The position numbers and the translations under genes are program-made. DNA of 64,000 bases from Acidobacteriota bacterium (lineage in GTDB: Bacteria; Acidobacteriota; UBA890; WLXD01). Positions 39,946 to 63,898 of the stretch are shown here, piece after piece. Position 1 is the stretch's first letter; each line of letters begins with the position of its first letter. The notes under the pieces were generated by a model, which was not told the origin of the DNA, did no database searches, and was given only the letters and a program-made list of their open reading frames with translations. The DNA lies in contig CAXWPL010000001.1 of NCBI GenBank assembly GCA_963666215.2, positions 256,001 to 320,000 on the forward strand, read 5' to 3'.

Positions 39946-42131
39946 CCGTGCGGCCGCCTGGGCTCTTGGCATCGATCGCCCTCTTCGGAGCAATCGGAGT
40001 ATTGGGCGCACTCCCCGCCAAGGCGCATGCTCAGGCGTCGCCGCAGCCCCGGTGCCGACTCGGCCTCGCGCTCAGCGGAGGCGGCGCCCGCGGCATCGCC
40101 GAGCTCGGCGTTCTGCAAGCATTCCAAGAGGCCGGCGTCCACGTCGACTGCATCGCGGGGGCGAGTGTGGGCGCGATCATTGGCTCGCTCTACGCCAGCG
40201 GCTACGACCTGGCGAGCATCGAACGCCTGGTGCGAGAGCTCGACTGGCAGCAGCTCTACGCCGACCCTCACAATCGCAACCAGTACCCGCTCGTCCATCG
40301 TCTCGAGCGGCGCAGGACCGCGCTACGGCTGGGCATCGACAGCAGCGGCGTGAAGCTACCACGCGCCTTTCTGAACGACTACCTCGTCAACCGCGTGTTG
40401 ATTGAACATCTCGCCGAGGCAGGGTTCGCTGCCGGGCGCGATTTCTCGAGGCTGCCGATCTCCTTCCGCGCCGTTGGCACCGATCTGCACACCGGCGCCC
40501 GCGTCGTGCTGGCGAGTGGCGACCTCGGCCGCGCGGTGCGCAGCAGCATGTCGGTACCCCTCGCCTACCCGCCGGTGGAGTGGAACGAGTACCTGCTGGT
40601 TGACGGCGGGCTGGTCGACAACATCCCGGTCAGCCTGATTGCCGAGATGGGAGCCCAGTTCACCGTAGCGGTCGATGTGTCGACACCCATCACACCGGAA
40701 GCAACACCCGATGTGTTCGGTGTTACCTCGCGCATCATCGACCTGCTGTACGACGCCAAGAACAGCATCCACTACCGCGAGCCCGACTTGCTGATCAAGC
40801 CGGAGCTTGGCGACCACTCGTTCGCCGACTATTCCGACATCGACAAGCTCATCGACCTTGGCCACGCGGCCGCCTCGAAGGCCATCGAGGAGATTCCCGC
40901 CGAATACCGTCTCGGACCCGGCGGCACGGCACCGGCGGCAAGCGACAGCGCGCCAGGCGCCGTAATCGGGCTGCAGCAGCGCAGCGTCAGCGAGATCCGC
41001 GTCAGCGGCAATCGTTACGTCAACAGCGACGTGCTGCGCCATGAGTTCGGCATGCGCCCGGGTGACCGACTCGATCTAACGCGAGCTCTGCGCGGCCTCG
41101 ACCATGTGTTCTCCTCCGGGCTGCTCGACAGCGCATGGCTCGACTTCATCCCCGACGGCGACGAGGAGGCGATTGTCGAGATTGTTGTTCGCGAGCAGTT
41201 CCGCCGCACGCTCGACGTGGGCCTCGCCTACCAAAACGACGATCAAGCGCAAGCCTACGCGGCAATCGAGCTGCGCAACGAATTGGGCGCTGGCGAGCGA
41301 CTGATGTTCCGCTTTCTGGCCAGCGAGAAGGACCTGGTCCTCGGGGTCCGCGTGCGCAGCGACCAGATCTTCGGCAGCCACTTCGGTTATCAGATCGACA
41401 TCGAGTCGCACCGGGAGAAGCCTAAGGTGTACCGCGACGGGGCCCTCGTGAACCGCGCGGAGTTTCAACGCAGCGACGCGCGCATCCTGGCCGTGGTGCC
41501 AATCGCCTCGCAGCACCTGATCCAGCTCGGATTCCGATTCGGCGAGGTCGATGTCGGTGACCGCCTGGGCCTCGATATCCCCGCGATCTCATTCCAGCAT
41601 CGTGGCCTGCTGGCTCGCTATCTGTGGGACGACCTCGACGCGGTGGTTCTACCAACCAGCGGGCGCCAGCTGACGGTGAATGTGGAGCGTAATCTCAGCG
41701 GGCTCAACTCCACCGCGGCGTACTGGCGAGGCGAGGCGAGCGGACGGGCGATAGTCACGATCACCGACCGCTGGACGCTCGACGCGCGTGCGCGTTTCGG
41801 CTACTCCTCGGGCGCGCTGCCGATCCACGAGCAGTTTCGGCTCGGCGGCCCCGACTACGTACCAGGCCTCGACCGCGAGGAGCTGTGGAACAACCATCTG
41901 CTGGCTGGCAGCGCCGCGGTTGGCTACGAGCTGATGGCCGGAGCACGCGTGACAGCCCGTCTGGGCGCTGGCAATTCGTGGGCCGAGTTCGGCGAAGTCG
42001 ACCCGGCCGACCTAGGAGTGGGGGCTGCGTTGGGGGTGATCTTCTCCACCCCGATCGGCCCCCTGCGCTTCGAGTACGGCTTCGCCGATGGCGATCGCAG
42101 CGAGCTCTACGTCGCGCTTGGGCATCAGTAG
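39942..42131 (+). CDS. Patatin-like phospholipase with POTRA and Omp85 barrel (PlpD / type Vd-like)
   Basis: Signal peptide, SGGGARG, GASVG nucleophile, DGG, POTRA-like segment, barrel ending TPIGPLRFEYG...LYVALG. Confidence 0.88.
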   Translation: MTVRPPGLLASIALFGAIGVLGALPAKAHAQASPQPRCRLGLALSGGGARGIAELGVLQAFQEAGVHVDCIAGASVGAIIGSLYASGYDLASIERLVRELDWQQLYADPHNRNQYPLVHRLERRRTALRLGIDSSGVKLPRAFLNDYLVNRVLIEHLAEAGFAAGRDFSRLPISFRAVGTDLHTGARVVLASGDLGRAVRSSMSVPLAYPPVEWNEYLLVDGGLVDNIPVSLIAEMGAQFTVAVDVSTPITPEATPDVFGVTSRIIDLLYDAKNSIHYREPDLLIKPELGDHSFADYSDIDKLIDLGHAAASKAIEEIPAEYRLGPGGTAPAASDSAPGAVIGLQQRSVSEIRVSGNRYVNSDVLRHEFGMRPGDRLDLTRALRGLDHVFSSGLLDSAWLDFIPDGDEEAIVEIVVREQFRRTLDVGLAYQNDDQAQAYAAIELRNELGAGERLMFRFLASEKDLVLGVRVRSDQIFGSHFGYQIDIESHREKPKVYRDGALVNRAEFQRSDARILAVVPIASQHLIQLGFRFGEVDVGDRLGLDIPAISFQHRGLLARYLWDDLDAVVLPTSGRQLTVNVERNLSGLNSTAAYWRGEASGRAIVTITDRWTLDARARFGYSSGALPIHEQFRLGGPDYVPGLDREELWNNHLLAGSAAVGYELMAGARVTARLGAGNSWAEFGEVDPADLGVGAALGVIFSTPIGPLRFEYGFADGDRSELYVALGHQ

Positions 42132-43727: not shown

Positions 43728-43856
43728 CCGGGGCGGCGGCCAGGACCGCGAAGGCCCCGATCGCGCCGCCGGCCAGTTGCAATTCTCGTGTCGATCCCAT
43801 ACGACGGGCGCATCACGTCAGTTGAGCACTACTGTTGATGTACTCGGGAGACCCTG

Positions 43857-44792
43857 ATGGGCATGTCCAGACGCATGGCGTTCGTTCTGATTCTGCTGGC
43901 GGGAGCGGCGGCTCTCACGTTTTCTCCAGCCCAGCACCTGGCCGGAGCGACGGTCGTCACCGACTACAGCGACGTCGACGCGGCGGCGATACTGGAAGAG
44001 TGGATCGACAGCAAGAACCTCTCGGGAATGGGCGACACGTCGGCGATGGTCGCGGCGGCGAACGAGAGCCCATCCATGCTCTACGCAACGGCGTACTCCG
44101 GCCTCGGCGACTCCACGCGTTCGCGGCTGTACAAGATCAACCTCGACACTCAAGAAGCTGAGTTGCTCAGATTGATCCCCTTCGATCGGGTGAGCGCGAT
44201 GGCCTACAACCCGCGGGACGGCTTTCTGTACGCGATCGGTCGTCCCGACAACCCGATTGACAACAAGGCGGTGCTGATTCGGATCGATCCGGCGACCGGC
44301 AAGGCCGTCAAGGAAACGTCGATCCGCAAGAACGTGGTCGACCAGTACTACACGCTGTACGCCTCCGACATGCTGTTCGCCAAGGAAGGCCGCGGCTTTC
44401 CTGTGCGAGTCCAAGACGCGCAAGAGGGCTTCTTCTCCTTGCGGCGGCGAGGTGCCGCTCGACAGCTCGACAAGGGCACCTCTCCCTCGGGCTCCGCACT
44501 GGCGCGACGCACGAACGGTCGGAAGTACCTGCGGTTCACCAACACAGAGCTGCAGATACTGACCAAGCAGGGTTATCAGATCAATACGAAGCCGCTCACA
44601 TGCGAAGCTGGCGGAAGTGCGCGGGCCACCGCAGCTGTGAACTGCAACAGGCGGATCTTCGTCGTGGTCACCAACGACTTCGGTGGGGGCTCGCCCTCGA
44701 CGCTCGGCGAGCTCGACCAGGCCGCCGGGAAGGTGAACACGCTCTTCGAGTTGCCCGAGCACTTCGAGTCGCTCGCCTGCTGCCCCGAGTAG
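43857..44792 (+). CDS. Secreted hypothetical protein, beta-propeller-like
   Basis: Signal peptide; repeated LYKINLDT / LIRIDPATG / LGELDQAAG blade-like motifs. Confidence 0.6.
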   Translation: MGMSRRMAFVLILLAGAAALTFSPAQHLAGATVVTDYSDVDAAAILEEWIDSKNLSGMGDTSAMVAAANESPSMLYATAYSGLGDSTRSRLYKINLDTQEAELLRLIPFDRVSAMAYNPRDGFLYAIGRPDNPIDNKAVLIRIDPATGKAVKETSIRKNVVDQYYTLYASDMLFAKEGRGFPVRVQDAQEGFFSLRRRGAARQLDKGTSPSGSALARRTNGRKYLRFTNTELQILTKQGYQINTKPLTCEAGGSARATAAVNCNRRIFVVVTNDFGGGSPSTLGELDQAAGKVNTLFELPEHFESLACCPE

Positions 44793-44893
44793 CACAAGGC
44801 AAGCCTGACACCAGCCCATCGGGCCGCCAGGTACAAGACCCACCGAAGTCGACTGCCGCCCGACTAGCCCACAGCGCGCCTGGCGCTCGCTGG

Positions 44894-47800
44894 CTACCGC
44901 CCCGAAGAAAGGTGCGCGCGGATGGCCGCGATGAAGCGTGGCACGGTCTCCCAAACGTCTCCGACGATGGGGTGAACGAGTGGCCGCGCGCGCTGCTCAT
45001 TGAGCCGCATCAGAGGCGCGGCCGGATCGATATTGAACGACAAGATCGTGGCGCGCTCGCCGATGTAGTCGACGTGCTGCGGCGCTCCTGAGACAGCAAG
45101 CGCGATGATCAGCCGCGGGTTAACGGCGAAGCCCGTCTGCCCGATCTGCCGGTCCATCGGCAGCAGCTCCAGGTCTTGAGTGACCTTGCGGGTGGCCCCG
45201 ATCATCACGCCCGGCAGGCCGAGCTCGTCGGCCAGCAGCTTGCGCAGCGGCTCGGCGAGTTGATCGATGCCGTCACGCCCGCCGGCACCGTAGCCGAAGT
45301 CGATGATGACCTCGGCGTCGGCAATCGACGTGTCGCCGGCGCCGAGTCGCGAGAGCAGCGTGGCAACGGGGTCGTCGGCAACACAATAGTCGAGCCGCGG
45401 CGACCAGTAGAACACCTGGCTGTCGGCCGAGCCGGGCATGGCGTACGAGGCACGGCCGAGGTCAACCTGCACGGACCGCCCCAGGGTGACCACTCGGAGT
45501 CCCTCACGCTGCTGGGGGGGCAGGCTGACGGCGGCAGCAGCGGCGCCGCCGTAGATAGGCGTCGCTAGTTGCACGCCGCGGCCCGCGGCGGACGCGTTGG
45601 GTCCGCTCGCTGCGCCGGAGCCGGCGGACAAGGGATCGTTCGCGATCGACTCGACGTTGAACCAGCTCCAACTCTGACGCCGCCCTGCACCCGGCGGCGC
45701 CGAGGCCATCAGACGAGAGAACAGCTCGTTCATCCAGCTCGTTCCCACCAGCCACTGCGGGCTGCCGCGATACATCGCCCACAGCTCTTCGAGCCACTCC
45801 AAGTGACCCGCGGCGCCGAAGCTGGCCATGCCATCGGCGGCGACTACGTAGATCCGTCGCGGTTCGGCGATCGCAGCCGCCCCGCCGGCAATCGCCGCCG
45901 CAGCCTCTTCGGCGCCGTCGATCGGCAGCACCAGATCGAGCGGCAGCCCTACGCCGTCTGCCAGCTGAGCGGCGGCGTGCAACTCCGGGCGTGCGCCCTG
46001 CCATAGCACGTCACCGAGGCTGGGCTCGCCGACGTAGATGCAGCTCGGGTCGGTATCGGTGGGCTGCTCACCAAAGCTCAGCAGGCGTCCACCGTAGGGA
46101 GAAACCACCTCGGAGGAGCTTCCGCCCCCGACCTGCGCGACCACGCGCTGCACAACGGCAGCCGCCTGCTCGGGAGTTGTCGCAAGCCCGCCGGCCACGG
46201 CATCCCCGTTGCTCCTGTTCAGTGACGAGACCCGCAGCCGATGGATCACGTGCGCCGACTCAGCGTCGGGAACAAGCGCCCGCATCGATAGGGTCTCGAT
46301 CTCGGCTGTCGACGCCCGCAGCAGCGCCGGCAACCGGTACTGCAACTCGCTGCCAGCATCACCGGCCATACCGAGCACGGCGGGCAACGCCTGCTTCAGG
46401 GCCGAGCCCTGCCACCCTGATCTGGAAACCTCGAGCGACGGCTCACCACCTGACGACCAACCCACTGTCTCGACCTGCGCGTGCACCGAAGAGCCGAGCA
46501 GCGTGGCCAGATACGGAGCAAGCAATCCTTGTTCGGTATCGGCGGCGCGGTCGCCGCAGAGCACGAGATCGGCCGGCTCGAGTCGAAGCGCAGCGGCGAG
46601 GGCGTCGGCAATAAAGCGCGGATCGTGGGCCACAGCGGCTGGATCGCCAAACGGCGCCGCACCGTTGCCATCGCCGACGCCATCCGCTGTTTCGCCCGGC
46701 TCGATGCTCACCGCGCGATCCACCCCCAGCGCCAGCGCTTCGCGGAGCAACGTCGTCGCTGGTGTGCCTGCGACCGCGTAGGCAACCACCTCCACTCGCG
46801 CAGCATCTCGCGACTTGAGGCGTAGCGCCTCGGCGAGCCCGGCGCGATCGGCGGCGCTCAAGGTGTACATGGGCTCGGCGAATCCAGCGTTGTCGACGCG
46901 CGGCCGCGGGGCAGGCATCGGCACCGGCTTGAGCAGCACCGCGATGCGAACCGGTGCTGCAAGCGGCGCATGGATCGGCCCAGGGACCAGACGCTTCGGC
47001 ATCAGGCCCCAGCCCTCGGTGCGTGTCCCATGCTCCTCGAGCGAGAGGTATCCGAGTTGCAGCTCCGGGGGCCGCGCATTGCGTTCCAGGTACTCGAAGG
47101 AGCTGCGGTAGCGGCGCTCCAGCGTGGCGATCCGCGCCAGCGCCCGGCGCACGAACACCCGGGCCGCGCGCTCGACACACTGCCGGTGCTCGGCCTCTAC
47201 CTGATGTCGAACACACCACGACAAGCGATAGAGCACGGCGTCGATGACCTTCGTGAGACCGGCAATCTCGGGCAGTCGGAACATGCACGGCTGCAGCCCC
47301 ACGTTGGCCCAGATCTGTTGATCGAAACGCCGGACCGCCTCCACGAGGAGCTCGCGCAGAGTCGACTTGGCACGCTCCAGCGCGGCGACGAGGTCGGCGG
47401 CGTCATCGAGGCTCGGCGGCTCGTCGACACCGCTCGACGCCGCCTGGTTTCCTGCATCGGCCGCTTCGTCCCACGACGGCAGAACACGCTGCACCAGGTC
47501 TTTGAGGAGCAGGAACCGCTGCACCTCGTTGGTGCCCTCATAGATGTTGAGCACGCGCGCGTCGCGCCGCGTCTTCTCGATACGATGCAGATGGGTTTGC
47601 CCCTCGAGACCGCGTAGCCGCTCCATCCAGTCGATGACGTCGTGCTCCGCCTCCGAGCCGTAGTACTTGCCGATGGCCGACTCCATACGCACGCTCTCGG
47701 TGTGCTTGTTGTCGAGCAGGCCCACGAGCTCGTAGGTGGTGCCGGCGGTTGCCATCAGCTCATCGGCAACTCGCCCCATCCAGTAGAGATCGAGTGGTCT

Positions 47801-50800
47801 GGCATCTGCAGGGCCGGTCCGATCAGAGTCGCCATGCTCCAGGCGGTCGGCCTCGCCAACCCCTTCCACCTGACTCTTTCTGGAAAGCAGCAGCTCACGC
47901 GCGTCTTCGACCATCTCCTGGATCGTGGCGTGCGTCGTCACCGCCAGCCCGGCGCGGCCCGTGTTGAGCGTTTCGAGCGCATTCACCTGCCCGCGGCCGC
48001 GGAAGCCGATGATGCCCTCACGCGGCACACGCACGTTATTGAACGACAGCTCATTGGTCGGCGAGCCCCTCTGTCCGAGCTTCTCCTCGTCGGCGCCCAC
48101 CACCAGGCCCTCGGCGTGGCGATCGACCATGAATCCGGTCACGCCTTCGGGCTCGGTGCGTGCGTAGAGCGCCATGCAATGCGAAAAGCGCCCGTTGGTG
48201 ATCCACATCTTCGAGCCGTTGAGCACCCAGAACTCGTATGTCAGTTGGCCTTCGACCTGACGGAGCTGGGCGATATCGGTGAAGTCGACCCGCCGGTCAC
48301 CATGCATGTAGAACCGCATGCGGTCGGGCGCATCTTTGTCGTAGTCGTAGTCGCTGTGATCGATCACCGCCGGATCTGCCTCGTCCGAATAACGGTAGAG
48401 AATGCGATGGTCGTCGTAGTCGAACTCGAGACGTTCGGCGTCGACCAGATTGCGGCGATCCGACTGGCCGTCTTCGTCGACGAAGAAGTGCAGCGACCCG
48501 TCGTCGTCGCGATGCACCCGGCGGCTCTCCAGACGGGCGAACGTCTTGACGCCGCCGGAGTCGGACCCGGCGGTCGGCTCGGTGAGCGCAAAAGCCGAGA
48601 TGTAGCCGGCCGAGATGAACTGCAGAAACTGCTCGTGGGCGAGCTCGCGACGCGGATACTCGGCAAGCCGATTGGCGGCTCCGTCGACGATGTCGCCGAG
48701 GAGATCCCGCGCCTCGCGAAGATGAGCCTCGAAGCCATCGATATCCCGCCGTTGGCCGGCGCGACCGGCGGCGAAGAAGGCTCGTAGAAAGCCACCGCCC
48801 AGATACTTGAGTACTGTCGACTTCACGACCCGTTTGCGCACCATGCCCATGAGCTCGGTGTAGTCGGCCGTGAGTTGCACGAGGTTCGGGCGCCGCATGG
48901 CGGCGATCAGCCGATCGACTCCGTCGCGGATGTCGCCAAGCAGCTCCGGGCTGCTGCGCACCTTCTCGAGCTCGGCCCGGGCCCTAGGCAGATCCTGCTC
49001 CATGCCAATGAGTACGGGGGTGGTGCCGATACTGGTGTTGGCCATGATCGCCAGCGACAACGCCGCGTCGCCGTAGCGGCCGATCAGCTTGCAAAGAACG
49101 TAGTACTCGGCCTTCAGCGCACCCCCGCCGCCGAGACGTTTAGGTATCGGCATGCGCATGAATCCGCGCTCGACCATGTAGTCGAGATCGACTTGCGGAA
49201 TGCGATGCAGCTTCTCGAGGTAGCGGTTGTAACTCAGACCCTCGAAGCTCGGCTCAACGAAGCGCGCCCGCAGCTCGCCCTCCAGTTCCTTCCAGTAGGA
49301 CGACAAGCCCGGATCGTTGTACAGAACCTCCGGGACGTAGCGCAGATGATCCGGGTCGAACGGCTCGACGAGCCAGGCTCCCGATCGATACTCGCGGTCT
49401 TCTGTACAGATCACGTCATAGCGTTCGGCGCTGGCGATGTTCGCGGCGCGCAGCTCGCCTTGGTCAAGCAGTTCCTCGCCGATGGCAACGGTCTCGGCCA
49501 GCAACGCGGCTTCGTCGGGGAGATTCGGCACTTCTGCCGCCAGCCGTTCAACCCACAACTTCGCCGCCTCGAGCGTTGCCTCGGCCGGTAGGCCTGCGTC
49601 GAGGCGCCAGAGAGCCCGCAGCAGGCATGCTTTGGCGCCCAATATGCGCACCACCGCGCCGCCTACCAGTTGCTGCAACGGTTCCTCTACCTCGCCTTTG
49701 CCTCGGACTGTTGCCGCCGCGATCGCACGCGCGATGGCGCTGGCGTCCACACCGGCCGCCCACGTTTCCACGATCTCGACCGCTTCCCGGAATCGCTCCA
49801 CGGTGATCGCGAACAACGGCTGGGCGGCGCCGAGCTCGAGCCACCACAGTTCGGCGTCGGACAGCGGTACCAGCCGCTCACCGTCCTCGACCGCGAGCAG
49901 GCGATCGCGGCCGACCTGCACGCGGAGAGCGTCGTCGTGCGCGATGAGAAAGCGGAACGGGCTGCTGTCGCGGTAGTACTTCGCAATAACGTCGTCTTCG
50001 GAGAAGGCGGTTCCGCCGAAGATCTGCCCGGCGTTGTAGGAGAAAGAGCCGAGCGCCGGTCCGAAAGCCTCGGCCGCAAGTACCTTGGCGGCGGGGGCGC
50101 CGGAGCACCTGCTGCCGGTGGCAGGGTTGTGCAGTGTCAGCGCCTCCACCAGATAGCGCTGCGCCTCCATCTCGGCGAGCAGTTGCTTAACGGCGCCGAA
50201 CTTGGCGATGGTGTCGCGGCCGGCCTCGTCTTCGAACGTTCCTGGGAACTGCACCCGGCCGCTGGCGTGGTCGCGAGCGCGGCCGAGAAGGTACTCGCCG
50301 GCGCCGCGCACAATCGCCAGCATGTCGCGTAGCGTGACGTCAATCAGGTCGGCCGCCGGCTCGCCGGCCACCGGCTGCTGCGCGGCGCGAGGGTCGCAGC
50401 CGGCTTCGAGCGACGGCAAAGCGATAACGTCGGCCGCCTCGACTTCATAGCCGTCGAAGCGCACTTGGCGGATGCCCGCACCCATCAGGCCGATCGTGCC
50501 AACATCGCGAACCTCCAACCGAGGGCCCGGCTGCTCGAGGTCGACGAGATAGGCCTTGTTGTCGTGGACCGCGACCAGCCGTGAGGCCAGCGCCAGCGGC
50601 ACGAAATTGAGCTCGCCGTGGAGGGTCGTGACGGTGGAGCTCTCGACTCGCAGCCAACCCTGATGAGCGCAGGCGGCCCACTTGCCACCGTCCCCGAGCG
50701 ACGGCGACGCGCCCTCGGACTTGTTCATCAGGTCCAAGGCTTGCAAATGCGAGGCAGCGAGCCAAGCGATGGCAGGGTCGGCGCGGGCTAGCTCTTCGAG

Positions 50801-53800
50801 AAGCACATCCCGGAAGCCGAATGCCGGAGTCGCGGGCTCGCCAGTTCCGCCCGGCTCGCGCCCGGCTCGTTCCGCCTCGGCGACGTTCTGACGTAGCCAT
50901 TCACGCTGCGCCTCTGTAGGCGCCTCGCCGTGCTCGAGTGCGCGCACCGCCTGGCTGCCAAAAAGCGACTCGCAGTCGGCGCGCAGCGTTTTGCGCCTGC
51001 TGGCGAGGCGCATCGGTTGCGCCTCGATCTCCCGCCAAGCCTGCGACCAGCGCCAGCGCTCGATGCGCTGAACGGCGGGGCTCGCAGCCGAACCGTAGGG
51101 CGCATCATCGGCGGCTTCCAGGAATTCGGTCGACGAGCTGGCGCCAACCGACTCGAACGTATCGAGCAGCGCATGCAGGCCCACGAAATGATGTTCGCGC
51201 AGCTGCTTGCCGAGCACCTCGGCCCAAAACGGCCTGCCCTGCTCGGCGTGTCCACGGAGCTCATCGAAGCGTTCGGTGGCGTCGTCCCACAGTGTGATCG
51301 CCGCTTCGCCTGCGAGCTCGCGCTCGGACGCCAGCGAATCGTCGCGCCACGCCTCGCGCGCTTCCGCGAACGCCGCACGCGCAGCATCGAGGAGTCCGCT
51401 GAGCTGCGCGCGGCCGCTGGGCTCGAGCGTCAGCGGCGCGGCCGCGAGCGCGTCGCCGTAGGCCTCGAGCGACGCTGCCGAGCGCTCCACACAGGCCCGA
51501 ACCGCCTGCAGCGGCAGCCGGCGGGCGGCGGGCGCTTCCGATCGAGCCTGCGACGCAAGCGGGCTCCAGTTGCGAGTCCAGTGGGGTGATGTCGATGTCG
51601 ATGTCGATGTCGACAAGGAGGCAGAGTCGACGGGAACCCGCGCCTGCGGCTCCGGGCGCTGCACAAGATAGTCATGCAACATCCGCTGAGCCGGACCGTA
51701 GGTCTGGTACACCAGCCGGTGTGGGGTGGCGCGGCTCCAGTGAACGTCGCCGGTGGCACGCCAACAGGCCTCGCACTTGATGCAGTTCTCGAAGTTCACC
51801 ACCACGCCCGGCATGCCGGCGCTGTTGCGACGGACCTCGTAGACCTTCGCCGGGCACACGTTCCACAACACCGAGTCTGCGAGCTTGGCCCTCGCGCCGA
51901 TGGGCTCGGGCCACAGCACCTTGATGTGCGAGTGGTGGCCCTCTCGATAGCTGATGGTGCCGAGCCTTTCCTCGTAGCTCGTCGTGTGACGCACGGTGTC
52001 GTCGTCGAGGCGGATGCGCTCGAGGTTTTCTTCTACGAGCTGGTTGGCGAACTGGCGGCGATACGCCGACCGATCCCACTTCAGCACGCCGAACTGCACC
52101 ATCTCGACCAGCCACTGGACGACAACGGTCAGCAGTAGCCCAACTCCGAGCGCTGCTGCCGCCAGCAGATCCCAAATCGCCACCTGCGCCGCGAACAGGC
52201 GCGCTGCTGTGCGCAGCTTGTCGCCGACGTCGCGATCGTCGTTGCGATAGATCGTCGAAAACGCCTCGGCCAGGGCCGGGCCGAAGCGCCGCCAGTACCA
52301 GCCGAACAACCAGGGAACACGGCCAGCTTCTTCGTCGCCGCCCATCACCCGGAACATGGCGCGCAGTCGCGCGCCCTGTGCGTCGATCGCCTCGCTGATG
52401 CCTGTACCCGGGCGTACAGTGCCGGCGAGCGGCTCGCCGCAAGCGCTGGAGCCCACGGCCGAACGCCGGCGATCGGGAAAGAAGGCTGCCAGCGTGTTGA
52501 TGAAGGCGCTGGCGAGGTTTCTTGGCGTCACAGCGGCCCGAACCAGGCCAGCGACACCGATCGTGCGCGAAAGGTCGGCGACGTCGGCCAGAATCGGCTT
52601 GCGCTTGCGCCAGGGCAGCGCCCGCCGCAGAAGGCGCACAAGCTGCCACCATCGACGCACACCGGAGCGGTTACGGCGCGACAGCACGAACGCCGAGTTG
52701 TTGATCACGTCGAGCTGACGCTCGAAGAACATCTGCGTGCGCTCGACGTAGCCCGGCCAGTCCTTCAGATACTCGACATTGCGGTAGTAGTGGCTCGCGT
52801 GCAGCTCTTTCAGGTACGTGCGCTGCAGCGCCGCCGCTGTGTACGGCGAAGCCGCGGGATCGAGTCCCCCTCCGCCGCCACCCCGACTCCGCGGCCCGCC
52901 GTTCTCAGCGGCAATCGCCTGCACCGCGCGGGCGAAGTACAGCCCCATCGCGGTGGCCGGGCCGGTGAAGTTCGGATACGGAAAATCGAGACCGATTCCG
53001 CTCGCGGCGCCACCGATGGCCAGACCATCGTCGACCATGCGAGGGACCTCCCGAAGACCGCCACCGCGGATGATCTTGGCGCCGTAGGAGCTCACGGTCC
53101 CGCCGTCGATCAGCTTGGCGATCTCGGGCAACGCCTTGAACCACTCCATCAGCAGGTTGTGGTCGCCCTGGAAGTTCTCTTTCAGATTGTCGAGCGGCAG
53201 CACGAAGCCGAGCGAGATGCTGTCGGCGTTGGTGTACAGGAAGCCGCCCATGTTGAGGCGCGCCGTGCGGCCGTTGCGCGTGGCGTTGCGCAGCAACATC
53301 TCGTACGCCGCACCATGTCCCTCCCCTTCGCCGAGCCCGAACCGGCGATCGATCTCGTCGGCCGGGAGCGAGATCACCTCCTTCACGCCCTGCAGGAAGT
53401 GCGGCGCTCCGTGCGCCTGCTCCTCGGGAGAGACACGCTCGTAACCCTCCTGGGTCACCAGATGCGACGCATCGCCCTCGGCGAGAAAAACCACGTCGGC
53501 GTACGCCGGCCCACGCTCGGTGTGGACACCGATCACGCGTCCGCGATGACGGATCAGGCTCTGCACGGTGGTCTCGCAGGCCAGCACCACGCCATGCTCG
53601 CGCGCTACCTCGGCAAGATAGCGGTCATAAACCGGTCGCAGGACGGTGTAGCAGGAGTTGTAGACGCTGGCGCCGCGGACCGTAGCGCCGAGCAGCGTGT
53701 GCCCGTTGTAGAGAAAGGCGCCACGCTCGATGAGCCGCCGCTCGTAGGGTGCCGCCTCGACGGCCTCCCGGCCGAAAGCCTCTTCGTGCTCGAGGTTCTC

Positions 53801-53968
53801 GGTGAAGTAAACGGCGCCCGACCAGTTCTCGGCGCCCGGGAAGATGGCCGCTTCGCAGACGAGCACCGAGAAGCCAGCACGACCCAGCGCCGCCGCAGCG
53901 GTAACGCCGGCCGGACCCGCACCTATGACTATGGCGTCGAAATGATCGCCAGCAGGGGCGTTCTTCAT
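44894..53968 (-). CDS. Giant fusion: FixC-like FAD oxidoreductase + FixX-like ferredoxin + two acyl-CoA dehydrogenase modules + EtfB + EtfA (~3025 aa)
   Basis: VIGAGPAG, GAENWSG, GVKEVISL, GGFLYTN; CPAKVY...NCIKCEAC; RVQFPG...AGQIFGG; FALTEPTAGSD, NGSKMWITNG, KLGQRGSPT, IYEGTNEVQR; LLKPVP...ALALGVD...CGDRAAD; GATR, QIGQTG, VSGAPQH; no internal stop. Confidence 0.9.
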   Translation of the reverse strand: MKNAPAGDHFDAIVIGAGPAGVTAAAALGRAGFSVLVCEAAIFPGAENWSGAVYFTENLEHEEAFGREAVEAAPYERRLIERGAFLYNGHTLLGATVRGASVYNSCYTVLRPVYDRYLAEVAREHGVVLACETTVQSLIRHRGRVIGVHTERGPAYADVVFLAEGDASHLVTQEGYERVSPEEQAHGAPHFLQGVKEVISLPADEIDRRFGLGEGEGHGAAYEMLLRNATRNGRTARLNMGGFLYTNADSISLGFVLPLDNLKENFQGDHNLLMEWFKALPEIAKLIDGGTVSSYGAKIIRGGGLREVPRMVDDGLAIGGAASGIGLDFPYPNFTGPATAMGLYFARAVQAIAAENGGPRSRGGGGGGLDPAASPYTAAALQRTYLKELHASHYYRNVEYLKDWPGYVERTQMFFERQLDVINNSAFVLSRRNRSGVRRWWQLVRLLRRALPWRKRKPILADVADLSRTIGVAGLVRAAVTPRNLASAFINTLAAFFPDRRRSAVGSSACGEPLAGTVRPGTGISEAIDAQGARLRAMFRVMGGDEEAGRVPWLFGWYWRRFGPALAEAFSTIYRNDDRDVGDKLRTAARLFAAQVAIWDLLAAAALGVGLLLTVVVQWLVEMVQFGVLKWDRSAYRRQFANQLVEENLERIRLDDDTVRHTTSYEERLGTISYREGHHSHIKVLWPEPIGARAKLADSVLWNVCPAKVYEVRRNSAGMPGVVVNFENCIKCEACWRATGDVHWSRATPHRLVYQTYGPAQRMLHDYLVQRPEPQARVPVDSASLSTSTSTSTSPHWTRNWSPLASQARSEAPAARRLPLQAVRACVERSAASLEAYGDALAAAPLTLEPSGRAQLSGLLDAARAAFAEAREAWRDDSLASERELAGEAAITLWDDATERFDELRGHAEQGRPFWAEVLGKQLREHHFVGLHALLDTFESVGASSSTEFLEAADDAPYGSAASPAVQRIERWRWSQAWREIEAQPMRLASRRKTLRADCESLFGSQAVRALEHGEAPTEAQREWLRQNVAEAERAGREPGGTGEPATPAFGFRDVLLEELARADPAIAWLAASHLQALDLMNKSEGASPSLGDGGKWAACAHQGWLRVESSTVTTLHGELNFVPLALASRLVAVHDNKAYLVDLEQPGPRLEVRDVGTIGLMGAGIRQVRFDGYEVEAADVIALPSLEAGCDPRAAQQPVAGEPAADLIDVTLRDMLAIVRGAGEYLLGRARDHASGRVQFPGTFEDEAGRDTIAKFGAVKQLLAEMEAQRYLVEALTLHNPATGSRCSGAPAAKVLAAEAFGPALGSFSYNAGQIFGGTAFSEDDVIAKYYRDSSPFRFLIAHDDALRVQVGRDRLLAVEDGERLVPLSDAELWWLELGAAQPLFAITVERFREAVEIVETWAAGVDASAIARAIAAATVRGKGEVEEPLQQLVGGAVVRILGAKACLLRALWRLDAGLPAEATLEAAKLWVERLAAEVPNLPDEAALLAETVAIGEELLDQGELRAANIASAERYDVICTEDREYRSGAWLVEPFDPDHLRYVPEVLYNDPGLSSYWKELEGELRARFVEPSFEGLSYNRYLEKLHRIPQVDLDYMVERGFMRMPIPKRLGGGGALKAEYYVLCKLIGRYGDAALSLAIMANTSIGTTPVLIGMEQDLPRARAELEKVRSSPELLGDIRDGVDRLIAAMRRPNLVQLTADYTELMGMVRKRVVKSTVLKYLGGGFLRAFFAAGRAGQRRDIDGFEAHLREARDLLGDIVDGAANRLAEYPRRELAHEQFLQFISAGYISAFALTEPTAGSDSGGVKTFARLESRRVHRDDDGSLHFFVDEDGQSDRRNLVDAERLEFDYDDHRILYRYSDEADPAVIDHSDYDYDKDAPDRMRFYMHGDRRVDFTDIAQLRQVEGQLTYEFWVLNGSKMWITNGRFSHCMALYARTEPEGVTGFMVDRHAEGLVVGADEEKLGQRGSPTNELSFNNVRVPREGIIGFRGRGQVNALETLNTGRAGLAVTTHATIQEMVEDARELLLSRKSQVEGVGEADRLEHGDSDRTGPADARPLDLYWMGRVADELMATAGTTYELVGLLDNKHTESVRMESAIGKYYGSEAEHDVIDWMERLRGLEGQTHLHRIEKTRRDARVLNIYEGTNEVQRFLLLKDLVQRVLPSWDEAADAGNQAASSGVDEPPSLDDAADLVAALERAKSTLRELLVEAVRRFDQQIWANVGLQPCMFRLPEIAGLTKVIDAVLYRLSWCVRHQVEAEHRQCVERAARVFVRRALARIATLERRYRSSFEYLERNARPPELQLGYLSLEEHGTRTEGWGLMPKRLVPGPIHAPLAAPVRIAVLLKPVPMPAPRPRVDNAGFAEPMYTLSAADRAGLAEALRLKSRDAARVEVVAYAVAGTPATTLLREALALGVDRAVSIEPGETADGVGDGNGAAPFGDPAAVAHDPRFIADALAAALRLEPADLVLCGDRAADTEQGLLAPYLATLLGSSVHAQVETVGWSSGGEPSLEVSRSGWQGSALKQALPAVLGMAGDAGSELQYRLPALLRASTAEIETLSMRALVPDAESAHVIHRLRVSSLNRSNGDAVAGGLATTPEQAAAVVQRVVAQVGGGSSSEVVSPYGGRLLSFGEQPTDTDPSCIYVGEPSLGDVLWQGARPELHAAAQLADGVGLPLDLVLPIDGAEEAAAAIAGGAAAIAEPRRIYVVAADGMASFGAAGHLEWLEELWAMYRGSPQWLVGTSWMNELFSRLMASAPPGAGRRQSWSWFNVESIANDPLSAGSGAASGPNASAAGRGVQLATPIYGGAAAAAVSLPPQQREGLRVVTLGRSVQVDLGRASYAMPGSADSQVFYWSPRLDYCVADDPVATLLSRLGAGDTSIADAEVIIDFGYGAGGRDGIDQLAEPLRKLLADELGLPGVMIGATRKVTQDLELLPMDRQIGQTGFAVNPRLIIALAVSGAPQHVDYIGERATILSFNIDPAAPLMRLNEQRARPLVHPIVGDVWETVPRFIAAIRAHLSSGR

Positions 53969-54092
53969 GAAGAATGATTGCGCCGAGATTGCCCCGGACG
54001 GGGCGAATGATGAGGTCATGGTAAGGGATGCGCCGCGCACCGGCCAGACGGCCTGCTAGGCTTCAGTGCTCCCACCCACGGAGACCGGATTG

Positions 54093-55610
54093 ATGCGCAA
54101 AAACCTCGCTGTTGCCGGCGCCTTCTGTTTCGCTGCCGTCATCGCTGTCGGGATCGGAGGCGGGACGTCCCAGGGGGCGCAAACGCCAGCCCTGCTGCTC
54201 GCCAACGCGCTCATCGTCGACGGGTCGGGCAACGCTCCCTACGTGGGCGACCTGCTGATCGAGGGCGATCGTGTCACCGCGGTCGGCCCCGCCGGCAGCC
54301 TGCGCCCGCGCGGCACCTACGCCTACGAGGACCTCCATGGGCTGGCGCTGGCACCCGGCTTTGTCGACATCCACAACCACTCGACCGACCGCTTCGCGCG
54401 CGACCCCGCTGCCACCACGCAGGTGGCTCAGGGCGTGACCACCGTGATCGTCGGCGCCGACGGCGGCTCCCCCTGGCCAATCGACGACTATCTGGCCAGC
54501 GTCGAGGAGATCGCCCCGGCGATCAACGTCGGCACCATGGTCGGCCACGGGACGCTGCGCGGACGCGCCATGGGCGACGACTATCGGCGCGAGGCCACCG
54601 AGAGCGAGATCGCCATCATGGCCGAGCAGGTGGCGCGCGCTATGGAAAGCGGCGCCTTCGGCCTGTCGAGCGGGCTCGAGTACGACCCCGGCTTCTATTC
54701 CTCCACCGAAGAGCTCATCGCGCTCGCCAAGGTGGCGGCAGCGGCTGGCGGCTTCTACATGTCGCATACGCGCGACGAGGAAGAGGGCGTCATGGATTCG
54801 ATTGCGGAGGCGATCCGCATCGGCCGCGAAGGAGGACTGCCGGTGCAGATCTCGCACATCAAGATGGGCAACGCCTCGGTGTGGGACCGCGCCGGCGAGG
54901 CCCTCGATTTGATCGCCGACGCTCGCGCCGAGGGCATCGACGTCACCGCCGACCAGTATCCGTACACCGCCTGGCAGTCGGGACTCGGAATCGTCGTGAG
55001 CTCGCGCCGCTTCAGCGATCCCGTCGCGGTCGCCGAGGGCCTCGAGGCGCTCGGGGGCGCCGAGCGCCTGCAGATCGTCAGCTACAGCCCCGATCGCTCC
55101 GTCGAGGGCATGCGCCTGTCGGACATCGCCGCGCGCGAGGGACGCAGCGGCGCCGAGCAGTACATCGAGATGATGGCGCAGGGTGGCGCCGGCGTGATCG
55201 GTCATACGATGAGCGTCGAGGATGTCGCCGAGCTCATGCGCAGCCCCCACGTGATGACGGCCAGCGACGGTGGCATCGGCTCGGCACACCCGCGCGGCGC
55301 CGGCGCCTTTGCGCGGGTGCTCGCCTACTACACCCGCGAGCTCGGCCTGCTGTCGATCGAGCAGGCCGTGCGACGCGGCACCACGATGCCCGCCGACCGT
55401 CTCGGCCTCACCGACCGCGGCCGTATCGCCGTCGGCGCCGTGGCCGACCTCGTGGCCTTCGATCCCGCCACCATCGCCGACAACAGCACCTTCATCGAGC
55501 CGCTGCGGACCGCTGTCGGGGTCCACAAGACCTGGGTCGCGGGACAGGTCGTCTGGGAAGACAACGCAGGCACGCAGGCACGCCCCGGCCGAGTTCTGCG
55601 GAAACAGTGA
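54093..55610 (+). CDS. N-acyl-D-amino-acid deacylase (amidohydrolase family)
   Basis: PGFVDIHNHS, QGVTT, GLSSGLEY, SHTRDE, ISHIK, DQYPY, HPRGAGAF, DRGRIAVGAVADLV. Confidence 0.9.
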   Translation: MRKNLAVAGAFCFAAVIAVGIGGGTSQGAQTPALLLANALIVDGSGNAPYVGDLLIEGDRVTAVGPAGSLRPRGTYAYEDLHGLALAPGFVDIHNHSTDRFARDPAATTQVAQGVTTVIVGADGGSPWPIDDYLASVEEIAPAINVGTMVGHGTLRGRAMGDDYRREATESEIAIMAEQVARAMESGAFGLSSGLEYDPGFYSSTEELIALAKVAAAAGGFYMSHTRDEEEGVMDSIAEAIRIGREGGLPVQISHIKMGNASVWDRAGEALDLIADARAEGIDVTADQYPYTAWQSGLGIVVSSRRFSDPVAVAEGLEALGGAERLQIVSYSPDRSVEGMRLSDIAAREGRSGAEQYIEMMAQGGAGVIGHTMSVEDVAELMRSPHVMTASDGGIGSAHPRGAGAFARVLAYYTRELGLLSIEQAVRRGTTMPADRLGLTDRGRIAVGAVADLVAFDPATIADNSTFIEPLRTAVGVHKTWVAGQVVWEDNAGTQARPGRVLRKQ

Positions 55611-55707
55611 CGACCAGAAGCGAGCACCACCCGACGGAGCGGCACGACAGTCGGAGCACGAAACGAAGCTCCGACGGCGTGCCGATCGGCGACCTCCGAG
55701 CGCGGCG

Positions 55708-56460
55708 ATGAGCGCCGCTGGATGCGACGTCGAGAGCTTGGGGATCGTCGGCTTCGGCGCCTTTGGCAGCTTCGCCGCCGACCACCTACGCCAGCACTTC
55801 GATGTCATCGTCACCGACACCGATGATCGCGCAGCGGCCGCGCGCCAGGCCGGGCTCGGCTGGGCAGCGCTCGACGTTGTCGCCCGTTGTGATGCGGTTG
55901 TGCTTTCGGTGCCCGTCCAGGCCCTGTGCGACACGCTCGACGCCGTTGCTCCGCTGCTCAGCGCCGGCACCCTGGTGGCGGATGTGGCCTCGGTCAAGAT
56001 CGAGCCGGCTCGCTGGATGCTCGAGCGTTTGCCCGCCGAGTGCGAGATCATCGGCACCCACCCGCTCTTCGGCCCGAGGAGCGCCGTGGACGGCCTTGCG
56101 GGCCACCGCATAGCCATCTGTCCGCTGCGAACCGAGCGCACGCCGGCGATCCAGGCGTTCCTCGAGCGCCTCGGACTCGAGGTCATCGTCACCGACCCCG
56201 ACACCCACGATCGGCAGGCCGCCAAGAGCCAGGCCGTGGCCCAGTACCTGGGCCGAGCTCTCCACGACCTGCAGATCGACCAGTATCCGATTCGCACGCG
56301 TACCGCCGAGCTGTTCGCAGAGGCCGGCCGCCTCATGGCGGGCGACTCGCCCGAGCTCTTCGACGCCATCCAGCACCTCAATCCGCACGCCGCCGAGGCG
56401 CGCGCCGAGCTTCGCGAGCGCCTGGTTGCGTGGATCGGATCGCCACCCACAACCGACTGA
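55708..56460 (+). CDS. Prephenate/arogenate dehydrogenase
   Basis: GIVGFGAFG, DVASVK, GTHPLFGP, HDRQAAKSQ. Confidence 0.88.
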   Translation: MSAAGCDVESLGIVGFGAFGSFAADHLRQHFDVIVTDTDDRAAAARQAGLGWAALDVVARCDAVVLSVPVQALCDTLDAVAPLLSAGTLVADVASVKIEPARWMLERLPAECEIIGTHPLFGPRSAVDGLAGHRIAICPLRTERTPAIQAFLERLGLEVIVTDPDTHDRQAAKSQAVAQYLGRALHDLQIDQYPIRTRTAELFAEAGRLMAGDSPELFDAIQHLNPHAAEARAELRERLVAWIGSPPTTD

Positions 56461-56462
56461 GA

Positions 56463-57692
56463 ATGGTGCCGCCAGGAAGCAACTCCAACGCCACGCGAGC
56501 GCCAGCTCGGGCGCATGCCGCCAGCCAGCACGGATCCCACGAACCGACCGACAACGCGGCGGCGATCTTCTCGCAGGCCGCCGGGCTTCTGACGAGCTGG
56601 TATCACGAGCATGCGCGCGACCTGCCGTGGCGCCGGACTTCGGACCCCTACGCGATTCTGGTCTCGGAGCTGATGCTGCAGCAGACGCGCGTCGAGACCG
56701 TCGCGCCGCGGTTCGAGGAGTTCTTGGAGAGGTTCCCCGACTTCGAGGCGCTGGCCACGGCGACGGCCGAGGAGGTGCTGGCGGCCTGGTCGGGACTCGG
56801 GTACTACCGCCGCGCCCGGGCGCTGCATACGCTGGCTCAGATTGTTGTCGGCGAACATGGGGGGCGTCTCCCGGACGACCGTCAAACGCTATTGACGCTG
56901 CCCGGCATCGGGCCCTACACCGCGGCGGCGGTGAGCTCGATCGCGTTCGGTACGGCGCGCCTTTCGATCGACGGCAACGTGGCGCGGGTGGCTCGTCGGC
57001 TGCTTGACCTCGACGAGGATCCCCGAGCGGGCGCTGCTCGACGGCGGCTCGAGGAGGCGGCCAACGACGCGCTGGCGCGGTTGCCGCCGGGCACGCTCAA
57101 CCAGGCACTCATGGAGCTCGGGGCGACGGTCTGCCTACCGCGCACCCCGCATTGCCACCGGTGTCCGTGCGGGGAGATCTGCGTGGCGCGAGCCAACGGG
57201 CGCGAGCGCCACCCCTCGCCCATCAAGCGGCAGGCCGTGTACGACGTGGTGGAGGCGTCGGCGGTGATCGAGCAGGGCGGCAAGCTGCTGCTGTTCCGGG
57301 GTCAAAGGCCCGGCGTACTTCAGGAGATGTGGGAGTTCCCCACTCTCGACTCGCGGCTGGCCGACTCCTCGGCAGACCACGAGCAGCCCGGCACAGACAG
57401 CAGCGATTGCCTGCTGCGGCAGCTTCGATTGCACCTCAGAAGCCTCGGGTGGGAGCTGGTAGGTACCGAGCACCTCGGCCAGATCCGCCACGGAATCACC
57501 AACCGCCGGATTCGCTGCGAAGTGTACCGAGCGAGGCTCGAGCGGTCGACCCAGCGCTCTACAATTGGCTGGCCACAGGCGTCGGCGGAGCTCGGTCCGA
57601 GCGCCCATCGATGGCTGCCGTTACGCCAAATTGCATCGCTGCCGCTGGCAGCCTCGGCCCGCAAGACTCTGGAGCTGCTCTCGCCAAGCTGA
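56463..57692 (+). CDS. mutY: A/G-specific adenine glycosylase
   Basis: RDLPWR, VSELMLQQT, WSGLGYY, LPGIGPYTA, DGNV, CLPRTPHCHRCPC Fe-S motif, WEFP. Confidence 0.95.
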   Translation: MVPPGSNSNATRAPARAHAASQHGSHEPTDNAAAIFSQAAGLLTSWYHEHARDLPWRRTSDPYAILVSELMLQQTRVETVAPRFEEFLERFPDFEALATATAEEVLAAWSGLGYYRRARALHTLAQIVVGEHGGRLPDDRQTLLTLPGIGPYTAAAVSSIAFGTARLSIDGNVARVARRLLDLDEDPRAGAARRRLEEAANDALARLPPGTLNQALMELGATVCLPRTPHCHRCPCGEICVARANGRERHPSPIKRQAVYDVVEASAVIEQGGKLLLFRGQRPGVLQEMWEFPTLDSRLADSSADHEQPGTDSSDCLLRQLRLHLRSLGWELVGTEHLGQIRHGITNRRIRCEVYRARLERSTQRSTIGWPQASAELGPSAHRWLPLRQIASLPLAASARKTLELLSPS

Positions 57693-63895: not shown

Positions 63896-63898
63896 CAG

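Follow-up and report, generated by a model that had tools for sequence, protein, structure and literature searches.

A FixC-FixX-ACAD-ACAD-EtfB-EtfA fusion gene in Acidobacteriota and other phyla, encoding a predicted single-chain acyl-CoA:quinone oxidoreductase

We analyzed a 64,000-nucleotide stretch of DNA from an Acidobacteriota bacterium (contig CAXWPL010000001.1 of assembly GCA_963666215.2, positions 256,001 to 320,000; hereafter the window), in which one open reading frame (ORF) of about 9 kb on the minus strand encodes a single chain of ~330 kDa. From N to C terminus, this gene, which we call the megagene, encodes a FixC-type flavoprotein, a helical insertion with an anchor segment, a FixX-type ferredoxin, a helical bundle, two acyl-CoA dehydrogenase (ACAD) modules, and the EtfB, EtfA domain I, and EtfA domain II portions of an electron transfer flavoprotein (ETF). 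Sequence, profile matches, and structure models agree on this architecture, along which electrons would pass from acyl-CoA to quinone. An earlier reading of this DNA (the original prediction) had proposed a self-contained, possibly membrane-tethered route of this kind. Our data support that proposal, and nothing we tested contradicts it; the function, direction, and substrate of the protein are what we infer from its parts.

Architecture of the megagene product

The ORF list, the translation, and a conserved start codon confirm the single stop-free frame that the original prediction had described. An in-frame GTG lies upstream of this frame at 54040 and gives an alternative ORF (44894..54040, minus strand; 3048 aa in the ORF list) whose translation contains zero internal stops. 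The ATG at 53968 (M25) is invariant across an alignment of 26 homologues, and both the gene-caller product P0002 and all inspected homologues begin at this residue, 8-12 residues ahead of the GxGxxG motif. On this conservation the ATG at 53968 is likely the true start, and the gene is best given as 44894..53968, encoding 3024 aa. Residue numbers here count from the GTG form (3048 aa), in which the conserved Met is residue 25. All seven modules named in the original prediction were found where it had placed them, with ranges from our tools agreeing within a few tens of residues (Table 1), and matches to Pfam, NCBIfam, and PDB profiles recovered the FixC, FixX, ACAD, EtfB, and EtfA parts. Domain-wise structure predictions were confident for FixC-FixX and for ACAD module 1.

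Table 1. Coordinates of the megagene, its modules, and the two flanking genes in the window
Feature	Position	Strand	Remarks
Whole megagene	44894..53968	minus	3024 codons from the conserved ATG (M25), plus stop
FixC / ETF-QO-type flavin adenine dinucleotide (FAD) flavoprotein domain	52682..53947	minus	residues 32-453; invariant GxGxxG
Helical insertion	51896..52681	minus	residues 454-715; between FixC and FixX
Predicted membrane-anchor helix	52088-52177	minus	residues 622-651; one long helix in the model (R2 598-627)
FixX / ETF-QO-type [4Fe-4S] ferredoxin domain	51671..51895	minus	residues 716-790
Helical bundle (spacer or scaffold)	50861..51586	minus	residues 819-1060
ACAD module 1	49460..50815	minus	residues ~1076-1527; VLCAD-like fold
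ACAD module 2	47021..49240	minus	residues 1601-2340; VLCAD/FadE-type C-terminal extension
EtfB-like module (ETF domain III)	46121..46960	minus	residues 2361-2640; poorly conserved
EtfA domain I-like module	45356..46120	minus	residues 2641-2895
EtfA domain II (electron-transfer FAD domain)	44897..45355	minus	residues 2896-3048
Divergent amidohydrolase gene	54066..55610	plus	Amidohydro_3, 104 bits
Convergent secreted-protein gene	43857..44792	plus	signal-peptide-like N-terminus in translation; weak DUF6923, 23.7 bits

The FixC domain matched the NCBIfam models PRK10015 (E 3.2e-45) and FixC PRK10157 (E 1.4e-41), both below their curated cut-offs, and a phmmer search of solved structures returned T. 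maritima EtfC (7koe_C, E 6.9e-29). G16, G18, and G21 of the GxGxxG motif are invariant in 45 sequences. The FixX motif, CPAKVY...CIKCEAC, spans residues 729-759; Fer4_ETF_QO scored 26.6 bits on the FixX piece (cut-off 24) and 22.9 bits in a scan of the whole protein, and the predicted cluster ligands C729, C753, C756, and C759 are all invariant in the 26- and 45-sequence alignments. We built an AlphaFold2 model of residues 25-800 on the 45-sequence alignment, with a predicted local distance difference test (pLDDT) of 83.1 and a predicted template modelling score (pTM) of 0.87. Foldseek ranked 7koe_C first for this model (E 3.3e-25, TMt 0.82, root-mean-square deviation 3.3 Å) and porcine ETF-quinone oxidoreductase (ETF-QO; 2gmh_A) second (E 1.8e-17, TMt 0.52). 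The front of the protein thus joins an FAD domain and a single four-Cys [4Fe-4S] domain in one chain, as does ETF-QO, and holds homologues of both FixC and FixX, as do FixABCX and EtfABCX. The quinone-binding domain of ETF-QO (PF21162) reached 17.7 bits at residues 263-324, against a cut-off of 27.7.

A hydrophobic stretch in the helical insertion (residues 615-653) is the sole one in the protein with a Kyte-Doolittle 19-residue window above 1.6. Of 45 relatives, 37 reach 1.6 or more by this measure at the matching alignment position, and the other 8 are weaker (0.42-1.54); the segment itself shows little sequence conservation. We considered a helical hairpin for this 39-aa stretch and rejected it: the model shows one 30-residue helix. 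Because the model packs FixX on FixC and the downstream modules need cytoplasmic substrates, we assume that helix 622-651 is a monotopic membrane anchor.

Behind FixX lies a bundle of long helices (R1 29-270, mostly pLDDT 85-96) with no Pfam match, shorter in the Verrucomicrobia-type class of relatives (~144 vs 224 aa). A model of residues 791-1600 from a 47-sequence alignment (pLDDT 81.1, pTM 0.83) shows, after this bundle, a complete ACAD fold that is extended by helices at its C terminus. Pfam was near-blank on this piece, with one Acyl-CoA_dh_1 match of 28 bits. Foldseek placed human very-long-chain acyl-CoA dehydrogenase (VLCAD) best for ACAD module 1 (2uxw, 3b96, and 7s7g; E ~1e-11, TMt 0.62-0.64 over ~590 columns; for 2uxw, E 1.3e-11, TMt 0.63, 592 columns), with ACAD9 and 2z1q next, and a profile of the module-1 alignment matched 2z1q_A in the PDB (E 3.6e-11). 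The ACAD module 1 of the original prediction is therefore real, with a VLCAD-like fold, but it is probably not a second working enzyme. The module does not combine a catalytic Glu with a complete beta-barrel: the catalytic Glu column is Leu, both against the FEG Glu of 2z1q and against ACAD module 2, a comparison made at the YEG-equivalent column, with the LCAD/IVD-type alternative base position outside it. ACAD module 1 is thus predicted to be catalytically dead, and since it keeps motifs that touch the flavin loop of ACAD module 2 in the complex model (below), it is probably an in-chain pseudo-subunit.

ACAD module 2 (ACAD2) matches the N-terminal, middle, and C-terminal Pfam domains of the family (PF02771, 27.5 bits, cut-off 22.9; PF02770, 69.2, cut-off 33.3; PF00441, 69.3, cut-off 22.4) and carries two insertions (~1701-1810 and ~1851-1930). 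It scored 164.4 bits with the Bacillus-type FadE model NF058590, whose curated cut-off of 600 places it outside that equivalog. Its best solved match is CarC (6fah_C, E 3e-32), followed by 5lnx (MmgC), Bcd (5ol2_C), 2z1q, ACAD9, and VLCAD. Y2167-E2168-G2169 is invariant in both the 26 and the 45 sequences and aligns with YEGT of CarC; ALTE..GSD and KMW.T are invariant in the 45. We take these motifs to form the flavin loop and, in YEG, to supply the catalytic Glu. With both in place, ACAD2 is the predicted active acyl-CoA dehydrogenase.

Profile-profile alignment of the two modules with hhalign (probability 83.7%, E 8e-6, 266 columns) identifies them as an internal duplication. The sole invariant blocks of ACAD module 1 (ACAD1) are RVQFPG and GQIFGGTA(F/Y)SEDD, with invariant residues R472, Q474, F475, P476, Q549, G552, and G553 in the numbering of the 791-1600 piece, and the profile alignment shows that ACAD2 lacks exactly these two motifs, a complementary degeneracy. 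In the short class of relatives (13 of 47 sequences), the ACAD1 beta-barrel is reduced to ~19 of 85 aa in most members (group mean ~22), and the C-terminal helical domain is kept at ~145 of 156 aa, motifs included. In ACADs, the FAD of one subunit is bound at its ADP part by the RxQF and QxxGG motifs of the partner subunit; given this role, ACAD1 would complete the single FAD site of ACAD2.

We also modelled ACAD2 (1601-2200, with FAD riding along) in complex with ACAD1 (1060-1390) as the partner. The model scored 0.86, against 0.01 for the best of 3 controls, a mark that 58 of 80 solved complexes attain, as do 2 of 110 mismatched pairs; this calibration holds roughly, given that we used our own alignments and a ligand. 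Across runs, contact agreement was at least 74% and partner pLDDT at least 79. The lowest-error contacts join G225-S226-D227 of ACAD2 to Q474-F475 of ACAD1, and I566 of ACAD2, which adjoins the YEG Glu, to Q549, G552, and G553 of ACAD1 (piece numbering). Because ACAD dimers have already been solved, the high score is a measure of likeness and may reflect memory, and it applies equally to in-chain and between-chain pairing.

In the ETF region, Pfam ETF scored 41.0 bits (cut-off 26.7) and ETF_alpha 54.6 bits (cut-off 27). Profile matching against the PDB gave CarE (3e-30) and 5ol2_A (5e-30) for EtfA, and 1o94_C (2.9e-28), CarD (1.1e-25), and 4kpu_B (1.8e-25) for EtfB. EtfA domain II is the best-conserved portion of the region. 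Its electron-transfer-site Arg, R2951, is present in all 45 sequences, and around it QIGQ.G and SG.PQH are invariant, with T and A at 90% or more; PMC8958531 gives the equivalent residue as Rpa-273 and human alpha-R249. The Pfam matches together with this Arg are those of an ETF, and judged by these residues the electron-transfer flavin site is intact.

Within the protein, conservation is lowest in the EtfB module and EtfA domain I, which have only a handful of invariant columns. We took the signatures of ETF groups second-hand from PMC8958531. There, the EtfB zipper is DGDTAQ across 216 bifurcating ETFs and DDDSNQ across 449 canonical ones; an EtfA domain-I Arg (Rpa-165 = Afe-146) is retained in 214/216 and 447/449 of them, and removing its charge impaired the binding of FAD or AMP. 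We located these columns by HMMER, using the 4kpu_B zipper (D122-Q127) and the TRPAFGG Arg of 5ol2_A and 6fah_A; a +10 offset to 4kpu_A places this Arg at position 146. In the megaprotein family the zipper columns show D-T-x-Q-G-(V/I/L), except in 12-16 of 45 sequences that have gaps there, and the Arg column (T2827) holds T in 22, S in 13, and R in 1 of 45. Neither the nucleotide-site signature (the Arg with a DGDTAQ or DDDSNQ zipper) nor the bifurcating-FAD signatures were found in these columns. With the zipper and Arg signatures lost, the ETF part is probably not bifurcating, and we infer an ETF base without the bifurcating FAD and possibly without AMP.

Distribution of the family and integrity of the reading frame

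A word-seeded search of 5.8 billion proteins (length band 1676-5334 aa, E ≤ 1e-3) returned 247 relatives in that band, and among the 120 matches listed, ~44 were covered to at least 98% by one alignment. The relatives fall in two size classes (~2850-3036 aa and ~2470-2590 aa), carry the organism labels Acidobacteriota, Planctomycetes, Gemmataceae, and Verrucomicrobiae/-iia, and are filed under the generic names "acyl-CoA dehydrogenase family protein" or "ETF-quinone oxidoreductase". The megaenzyme of the original prediction is thus not a one-off: it belongs to a family of hundreds filed under such names, and by sequence comparison the full-length architecture is conserved in several phyla.

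We found a match at E ≤ 1e-50 in 23 genomes of a 301-genome sample of the phylum: the source genome (G000), 10 of the 10 genomes of family f1, 12 of the 15 of family f2, and 0 of the 275 of other families. These counts come from a stricter first look and are a floor. One genome, G130, carries two full-length copies (G130:C15:996526-1005153 and G130:C14:524251-532914; 59% and 56% identity to the query), suggesting paralogues with different substrates, and the copy in G055 is interrupted by a TAA.

In a metagenome scan, 138 relatives were confirmed and 80 loci kept, and an exact-peptide-pattern scan of genome contigs gave 2 loci. At 53 of 93 fetched loci (L005-L097) we detected an uninterrupted ORF of at least 2400 aa, which removes the possibility, raised with the original prediction, that homologues exist solely as separate genes. 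We looked for split, two-gene forms by tblastn at 33 partial-match loci and found no stop between modules; contig ends or the weak conservation of region 800-1240 account for all 33 partial matches.

An exhaustive HMMER search with residues 25-800 against 1.84 billion cluster representatives gave 1195 matches at E ≤ 1e-3 and 135 at E ≤ 1e-30. The top ~75 are fusion-type proteins, and ordinary 430-aa FixC proteins begin only at ~E 1e-43, at 33-41% identity. Seven further proteins of ~1350-1460 aa (P0163, P0165, P0166, P0167, P0170, P0180, and P0181) have the same FixC-anchor-FixX front, and none of the seven has a Pfam ACAD or ETF domain. In P0165, the front end is followed by just two stretches, one like the ACAD1 C-domain and one like the C-terminal extension of ACAD2. 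This class may represent a reduced relative whose ACAD and ETF partners are separate proteins.

Near-identical megagene DNA is present in 20 sequencing runs of 11 studies. In Logan contigs from 4 runs of 4 studies, three pieces cover 44894-48220, 48194-53163, and 53138-54040. No single listed contig spans the whole gene; each inter-domain junction falls inside one of the three pieces, and we found none of the stops or indels at junctions that could have overturned the original prediction. The contigs of all four runs break at 48190-48223 and 53134-53167, and the ~30-base words at both break points occur in many short contigs of other depth. Other organisms in the samples probably share the word at the first break, since it falls in the conserved KMWITNG stretch of ACAD2. 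The variant in one run differs by 30 substitutions, 16 synonymous and 14 not, and most of the 14 fall in linkers and weakly conserved modules. Among sequences that are 35-60% identical, the catalytic and cofactor residues do not vary.

Proposed electron path and its alternatives

On balance, we favor the interpretation that the megaprotein is a single-chain, membrane-anchored acyl-CoA:(mena)quinone oxidoreductase. ACAD1 would pack on ACAD2 as an in-chain pseudo-dimer and supply the partner-subunit half of the single ACAD2 FAD site, where a fatty or other acyl-CoA would be oxidized. Electrons would leave ACAD2 singly through the FAD on a mobile EtfA domain II, pass from there to the FixX cluster and on to the FixC FAD, and reduce menaquinone at the membrane. 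The base formed by EtfB and EtfA domain I, ACAD1, and the helical bundle would act as scaffold, with an ETF base lacking an AMP or bifurcating-FAD site and no NADH-dependent bifurcation; the predicted cofactors are three FAD and one [4Fe-4S] cluster. The VLCAD-like folds, together with lipid-related neighbors in some clades, weakly hint at a long-chain or lipid-derived acyl-CoA as the substrate.

A narrower version of this proposal, which we hold tentatively and rate at a little under even chances, combines an obligate in-chain ACAD heterodimer with one active site, an ETF without a base nucleotide, and a flavin domain shuttling to a FixCX-type menaquinone reductase anchored by one helix. In this version the ETF could have dispensed with AMP or a second FAD because covalent fusion holds the base together.

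The source genome (4.65 Mb in 5 contigs, 91.7% complete) offers a metabolic setting for such an enzyme. It encodes several other ACADs, matches to 3-hydroxyacyl-CoA dehydrogenase and thiolase, with an 843-aa FadB-like frame ~2 kb from a thiolase match, and two MqnA/MqnD-family proteins of the futalosine menaquinone route (222 and 139 bits). A separate EtfB-EtfA operon and a FixC-FixX pair lie elsewhere in the genome, so the megaprotein would be an extra, dedicated wire and not the sole one. The zipper of the stand-alone EtfB (L098, G000:C2:563123-566365) reads D-L-A-G-A-Q, which fits neither published signature exactly, and the EtfA at this locus keeps the Arg.

Several points weigh against the favored interpretation. 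The separate EtfBA and FixCX leave the need for a megaprotein unexplained, no beta-oxidation gene is found among the conserved neighbors of megagene loci, and none of the listed runs with the megagene is an RNA run. If the lone hydrophobic helix that separates FixC from FixX really crosses the membrane, the topology is awkward, and the partner-FAD role of RxQF and QxxGG is carried over from other ACADs. The nearest solved relatives of FixC, EtfA, and ACAD2 come from bifurcating complexes (7koe, 5ol2, and 6fah); E-values to non-bifurcating ETFs and ACADs are weaker by a few orders of magnitude at most. The potential of the acyl-CoA/enoyl-CoA couple is ~-10 mV. With the E0' of menaquinone at -74 mV, the value quoted in PMC10734219, oxidation of acyl-CoA by menaquinone is slightly uphill. 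Finally, an ETF base without a nucleotide site has no precedent, and in the ETF described in PMC8958531, removal of the Arg was destabilizing.

The structural kinship just described also suggests a different enzyme, a fused bifurcating or confurcating system of the FixABCX/EtfABCX or Bcd-EtfAB kind, in which a two-electron donor such as NADH would be split at an FAD in the EtfB/EtfA base, with quinone or enoyl-CoA accepting one electron and ferredoxin or flavodoxin the second. T. maritima EtfC (7koe_C) is the best solved relative of FixC, the EtfA module is closest to 5ol2_A, 6fah_A, and 7koe_B, and ACAD2 to CarC and Bcd (6fah_C and 5ol2_C); the characterized FixCX-type partners covered in PMC8958531 belong to bifurcating Fix systems. 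However, it is in the base, where bifurcation would occur, that the protein departs from these relatives: the DGDTAQ zipper is replaced or deleted, the flavin-hydrogen-bonding Arg is T or S in 35 of 45 sequences, conservation is weakest in the EtfB module and EtfA domain I, and a ferredoxin or flavodoxin is neither fused nor a conserved neighbor at the loci examined. We consider a bifurcating enzyme very unlikely on these grounds. The same wire might also run backward, as a menaquinol-dependent enoyl-CoA reductase serving as an electron sink in 'enoyl-CoA respiration'. The potentials given above favor electron flow from menaquinol to enoyl-CoA, and a separate EtfBA and FixCX are already present; enoyl-CoA respiration through an ETF and a membrane oxidoreductase is described for syntrophs in PMC8805022. 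The domain chemistry is the same both ways, so sequence cannot settle the direction. Gemmataceae and Verrucomicrobia are mostly aerobic heterotrophs. Genomes with these labels are among the sampled carriers and full beta-oxidation partners are encoded in the source genome, and we regard the reverse direction as unlikely.

A frame of this length could in principle stem from a chimeric assembly, from reading through adjacent genes, or from a pseudogene in decay, since DNA of 65% GC can contain very long spurious ORFs; two long ORFs next to the megagene are in fact shadows, and relative G055 has its internal TAA. The invariance of the catalytic and cofactor residues in divergent relatives, the uninterrupted architecture at the 53 loci of independent assemblies and in 22 other genomes of the order, and the indel-free contigs of four runs that bridge every junction all speak against such an origin, to which we give next to no credence.

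The acyl-CoA:(mena)quinone oxidoreductase that we propose can be set beside several known systems. Mycobacterial alpha2beta2 ACADs (FadE26-27 and ChsE4-5) pair an active ACAD with a degenerate one and have one FAD site per pair. Those pairs are two gene products, whereas the megaprotein pair is an in-chain tandem duplication, whose dead copy can even lose its beta-barrel. With the mitochondrial and proteobacterial pathway from ACAD through ETF to ETF-QO (2gmh, 1efv, and VLCAD 2uxw), the megaprotein shares four redox centers (ACAD FAD, ETF domain-II FAD, [4Fe-4S], and quinone-reductase FAD) in what appears to be the same order, as well as a one-cluster, four-Cys ferredoxin domain and, in both ACAD modules, VLCAD-type folds. 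Unlike that pathway of separate soluble and membrane proteins, the megaprotein is one chain, its quinone reductase is nearer to FixC (TMt 0.82) than to ETF-QO (TMt 0.52), its ETF base lacks AMP-site signatures, and one of its ACAD modules is predicted to be dead.

T. maritima EtfABCX and Azotobacter FixABCX (7koe) provide the best structure and sequence match of the N-terminal flavoprotein and likewise pair a FixX-type ferredoxin with an ETF, and EtfABCX is a membrane-associated menaquinone reductase according to PMC10734219. These systems have four subunits, bifurcate from NADH, and lack an ACAD, whereas the megaprotein lacks bifurcating-FAD signatures, has a fused ACAD pair, and has its FixC and FixX parts set apart by 260 aa of helical insertion, anchor helix included. 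Bcd-EtfAB and CarCDE (5ol2 and 6fah) are stable ACAD-ETF assemblies and give the best sequence matches of ACAD2 and EtfA, but they are soluble, NADH-dependent bifurcating enoyl-CoA reductases with separate subunits and no quinone reductase. The fused SaETF of Sulfolobus acidocaldarius has EtfB and then EtfA in one chain, the same order as in the megaprotein; in PMC12042025, it is an ETF alone (~600 aa) that scores bifurcating by consensus identity and has an ACAD and FixCX or ETF-QO as neighboring genes. Mycobacterial EtfD likewise connects ETF with the respiratory chain for the electrons of beta-oxidation, in an organism that uses menaquinone (PMC13083937; bioRxiv 10.1101/2025.05.14.654035). 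EtfD is, however, reported to be an unrelated membrane iron-sulfur protein, not of FixCX type and not fused to ETF or ACAD.

Every domain of the megaprotein is of a known kind, and we did not find the combination described in the literature: full-text searches, with most subscription journals outside their coverage, returned no paper describing the full FixC-FixX-ACAD-ACAD-EtfB-EtfA fusion, in line with the original prediction, which knew of no characterized protein with the full architecture. SaETF is the nearest published fusion (PMC12042025). Three traits set the protein apart: a complete three-protein electron pathway, normally four to six separate proteins, lies on one chain; a dead ACAD copy appears to be retained as a structural half-site; and the ETF lacks the Arg and zipper that are kept in nearly all surveyed ETFs and thought to be needed for nucleotide binding and stability. 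If the narrower version of the proposal is correct, the protein would provide the first known case of an ETF functioning with no nucleotide in its base, and the first of a complete route from acyl-CoA to quinone within a single chain. As a natural "Rosetta-stone" fusion, it would argue that plain, non-bifurcating oxidation of acyl-CoA can be served by FixCX-type reductases where menaquinone is the quinone. The swinging of the ETF flavin domain between a dehydrogenase and the quinone reductase is still studied with transient complexes, and a single chain with donor, carrier, and acceptor in fixed stoichiometry is an obvious target for cryo-electron microscopy of the entire path. The family seems widespread and never studied, and the proposal gives a functional lead for hundreds of "acyl-CoA dehydrogenase family protein" entries in Acidobacteriota, Planctomycetes, and Verrucomicrobia, abundant heterotrophs of soil and water.

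Genomic surroundings

The megagene has a divergent gene upstream and a convergent gene downstream (Table 1) and is therefore read as monocistronic. A sigma-70 promoter scan gave no candidate at either end of the megagene, and no terminator-like site was found in the 100-bp gap between the megagene and the convergent gene; the nearest such site on the minus strand lies ~1.15 kb downstream of the megagene stop. We rejected two minus-strand ORFs as genes. One of 940 aa (54063-56885), which clusters in 11 loci and had been considered as a conserved operon partner, is an antisense shadow of the amidohydrolase; its translation is Arg/Ala/Gly-rich and has no family match. The other, downstream (43818-44954), looks like a shadow as well and overlaps the convergent secreted-protein gene.

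Conserved neighbors of the megagene reflect clade-specific synteny. MutY and the amidohydrolase are common at Acidobacteriota-type loci, and a 4HBT thioesterase is found in 7. At all 14 Verrucomicrobia-type loci (L036, L038, L042, L043, L046, L050, L051, L053-L055, L059, L060, L063, and L079), the megagene is followed on the opposite strand by a glycerophosphodiester phosphodiesterase and an 830-aa GlpD-like FAD dehydrogenase, a neighborhood with a phospholipid-breakdown flavor; these loci are probably close kin. In the window, two adjacent paralogous ORFs of 381 and 390 aa without Pfam matches (37312-38457 and 38424-39596, both minus strand) have same-strand relatives that follow the megagene at a distance of a few kb at 11 Acidobacteriota-type loci (this window included). 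Between the megagene and two genes syntenic with it at other loci lies a plus-strand gene (39942-42131) for a patatin-like phospholipase fused to an Omp85-type barrel.

Toward the end of the window (58000-64000), G+C content falls from ~0.65-0.70 to 0.55-0.60. This region encodes an IS1595-family transposase (59698-60633, plus strand), a Schlafen/AlbA_2 and HATPase_c_4 protein (60822-62384, plus strand), and an N6_N4 DNA methylase (63059-63895, minus strand), and is probably a mobile or defense island.

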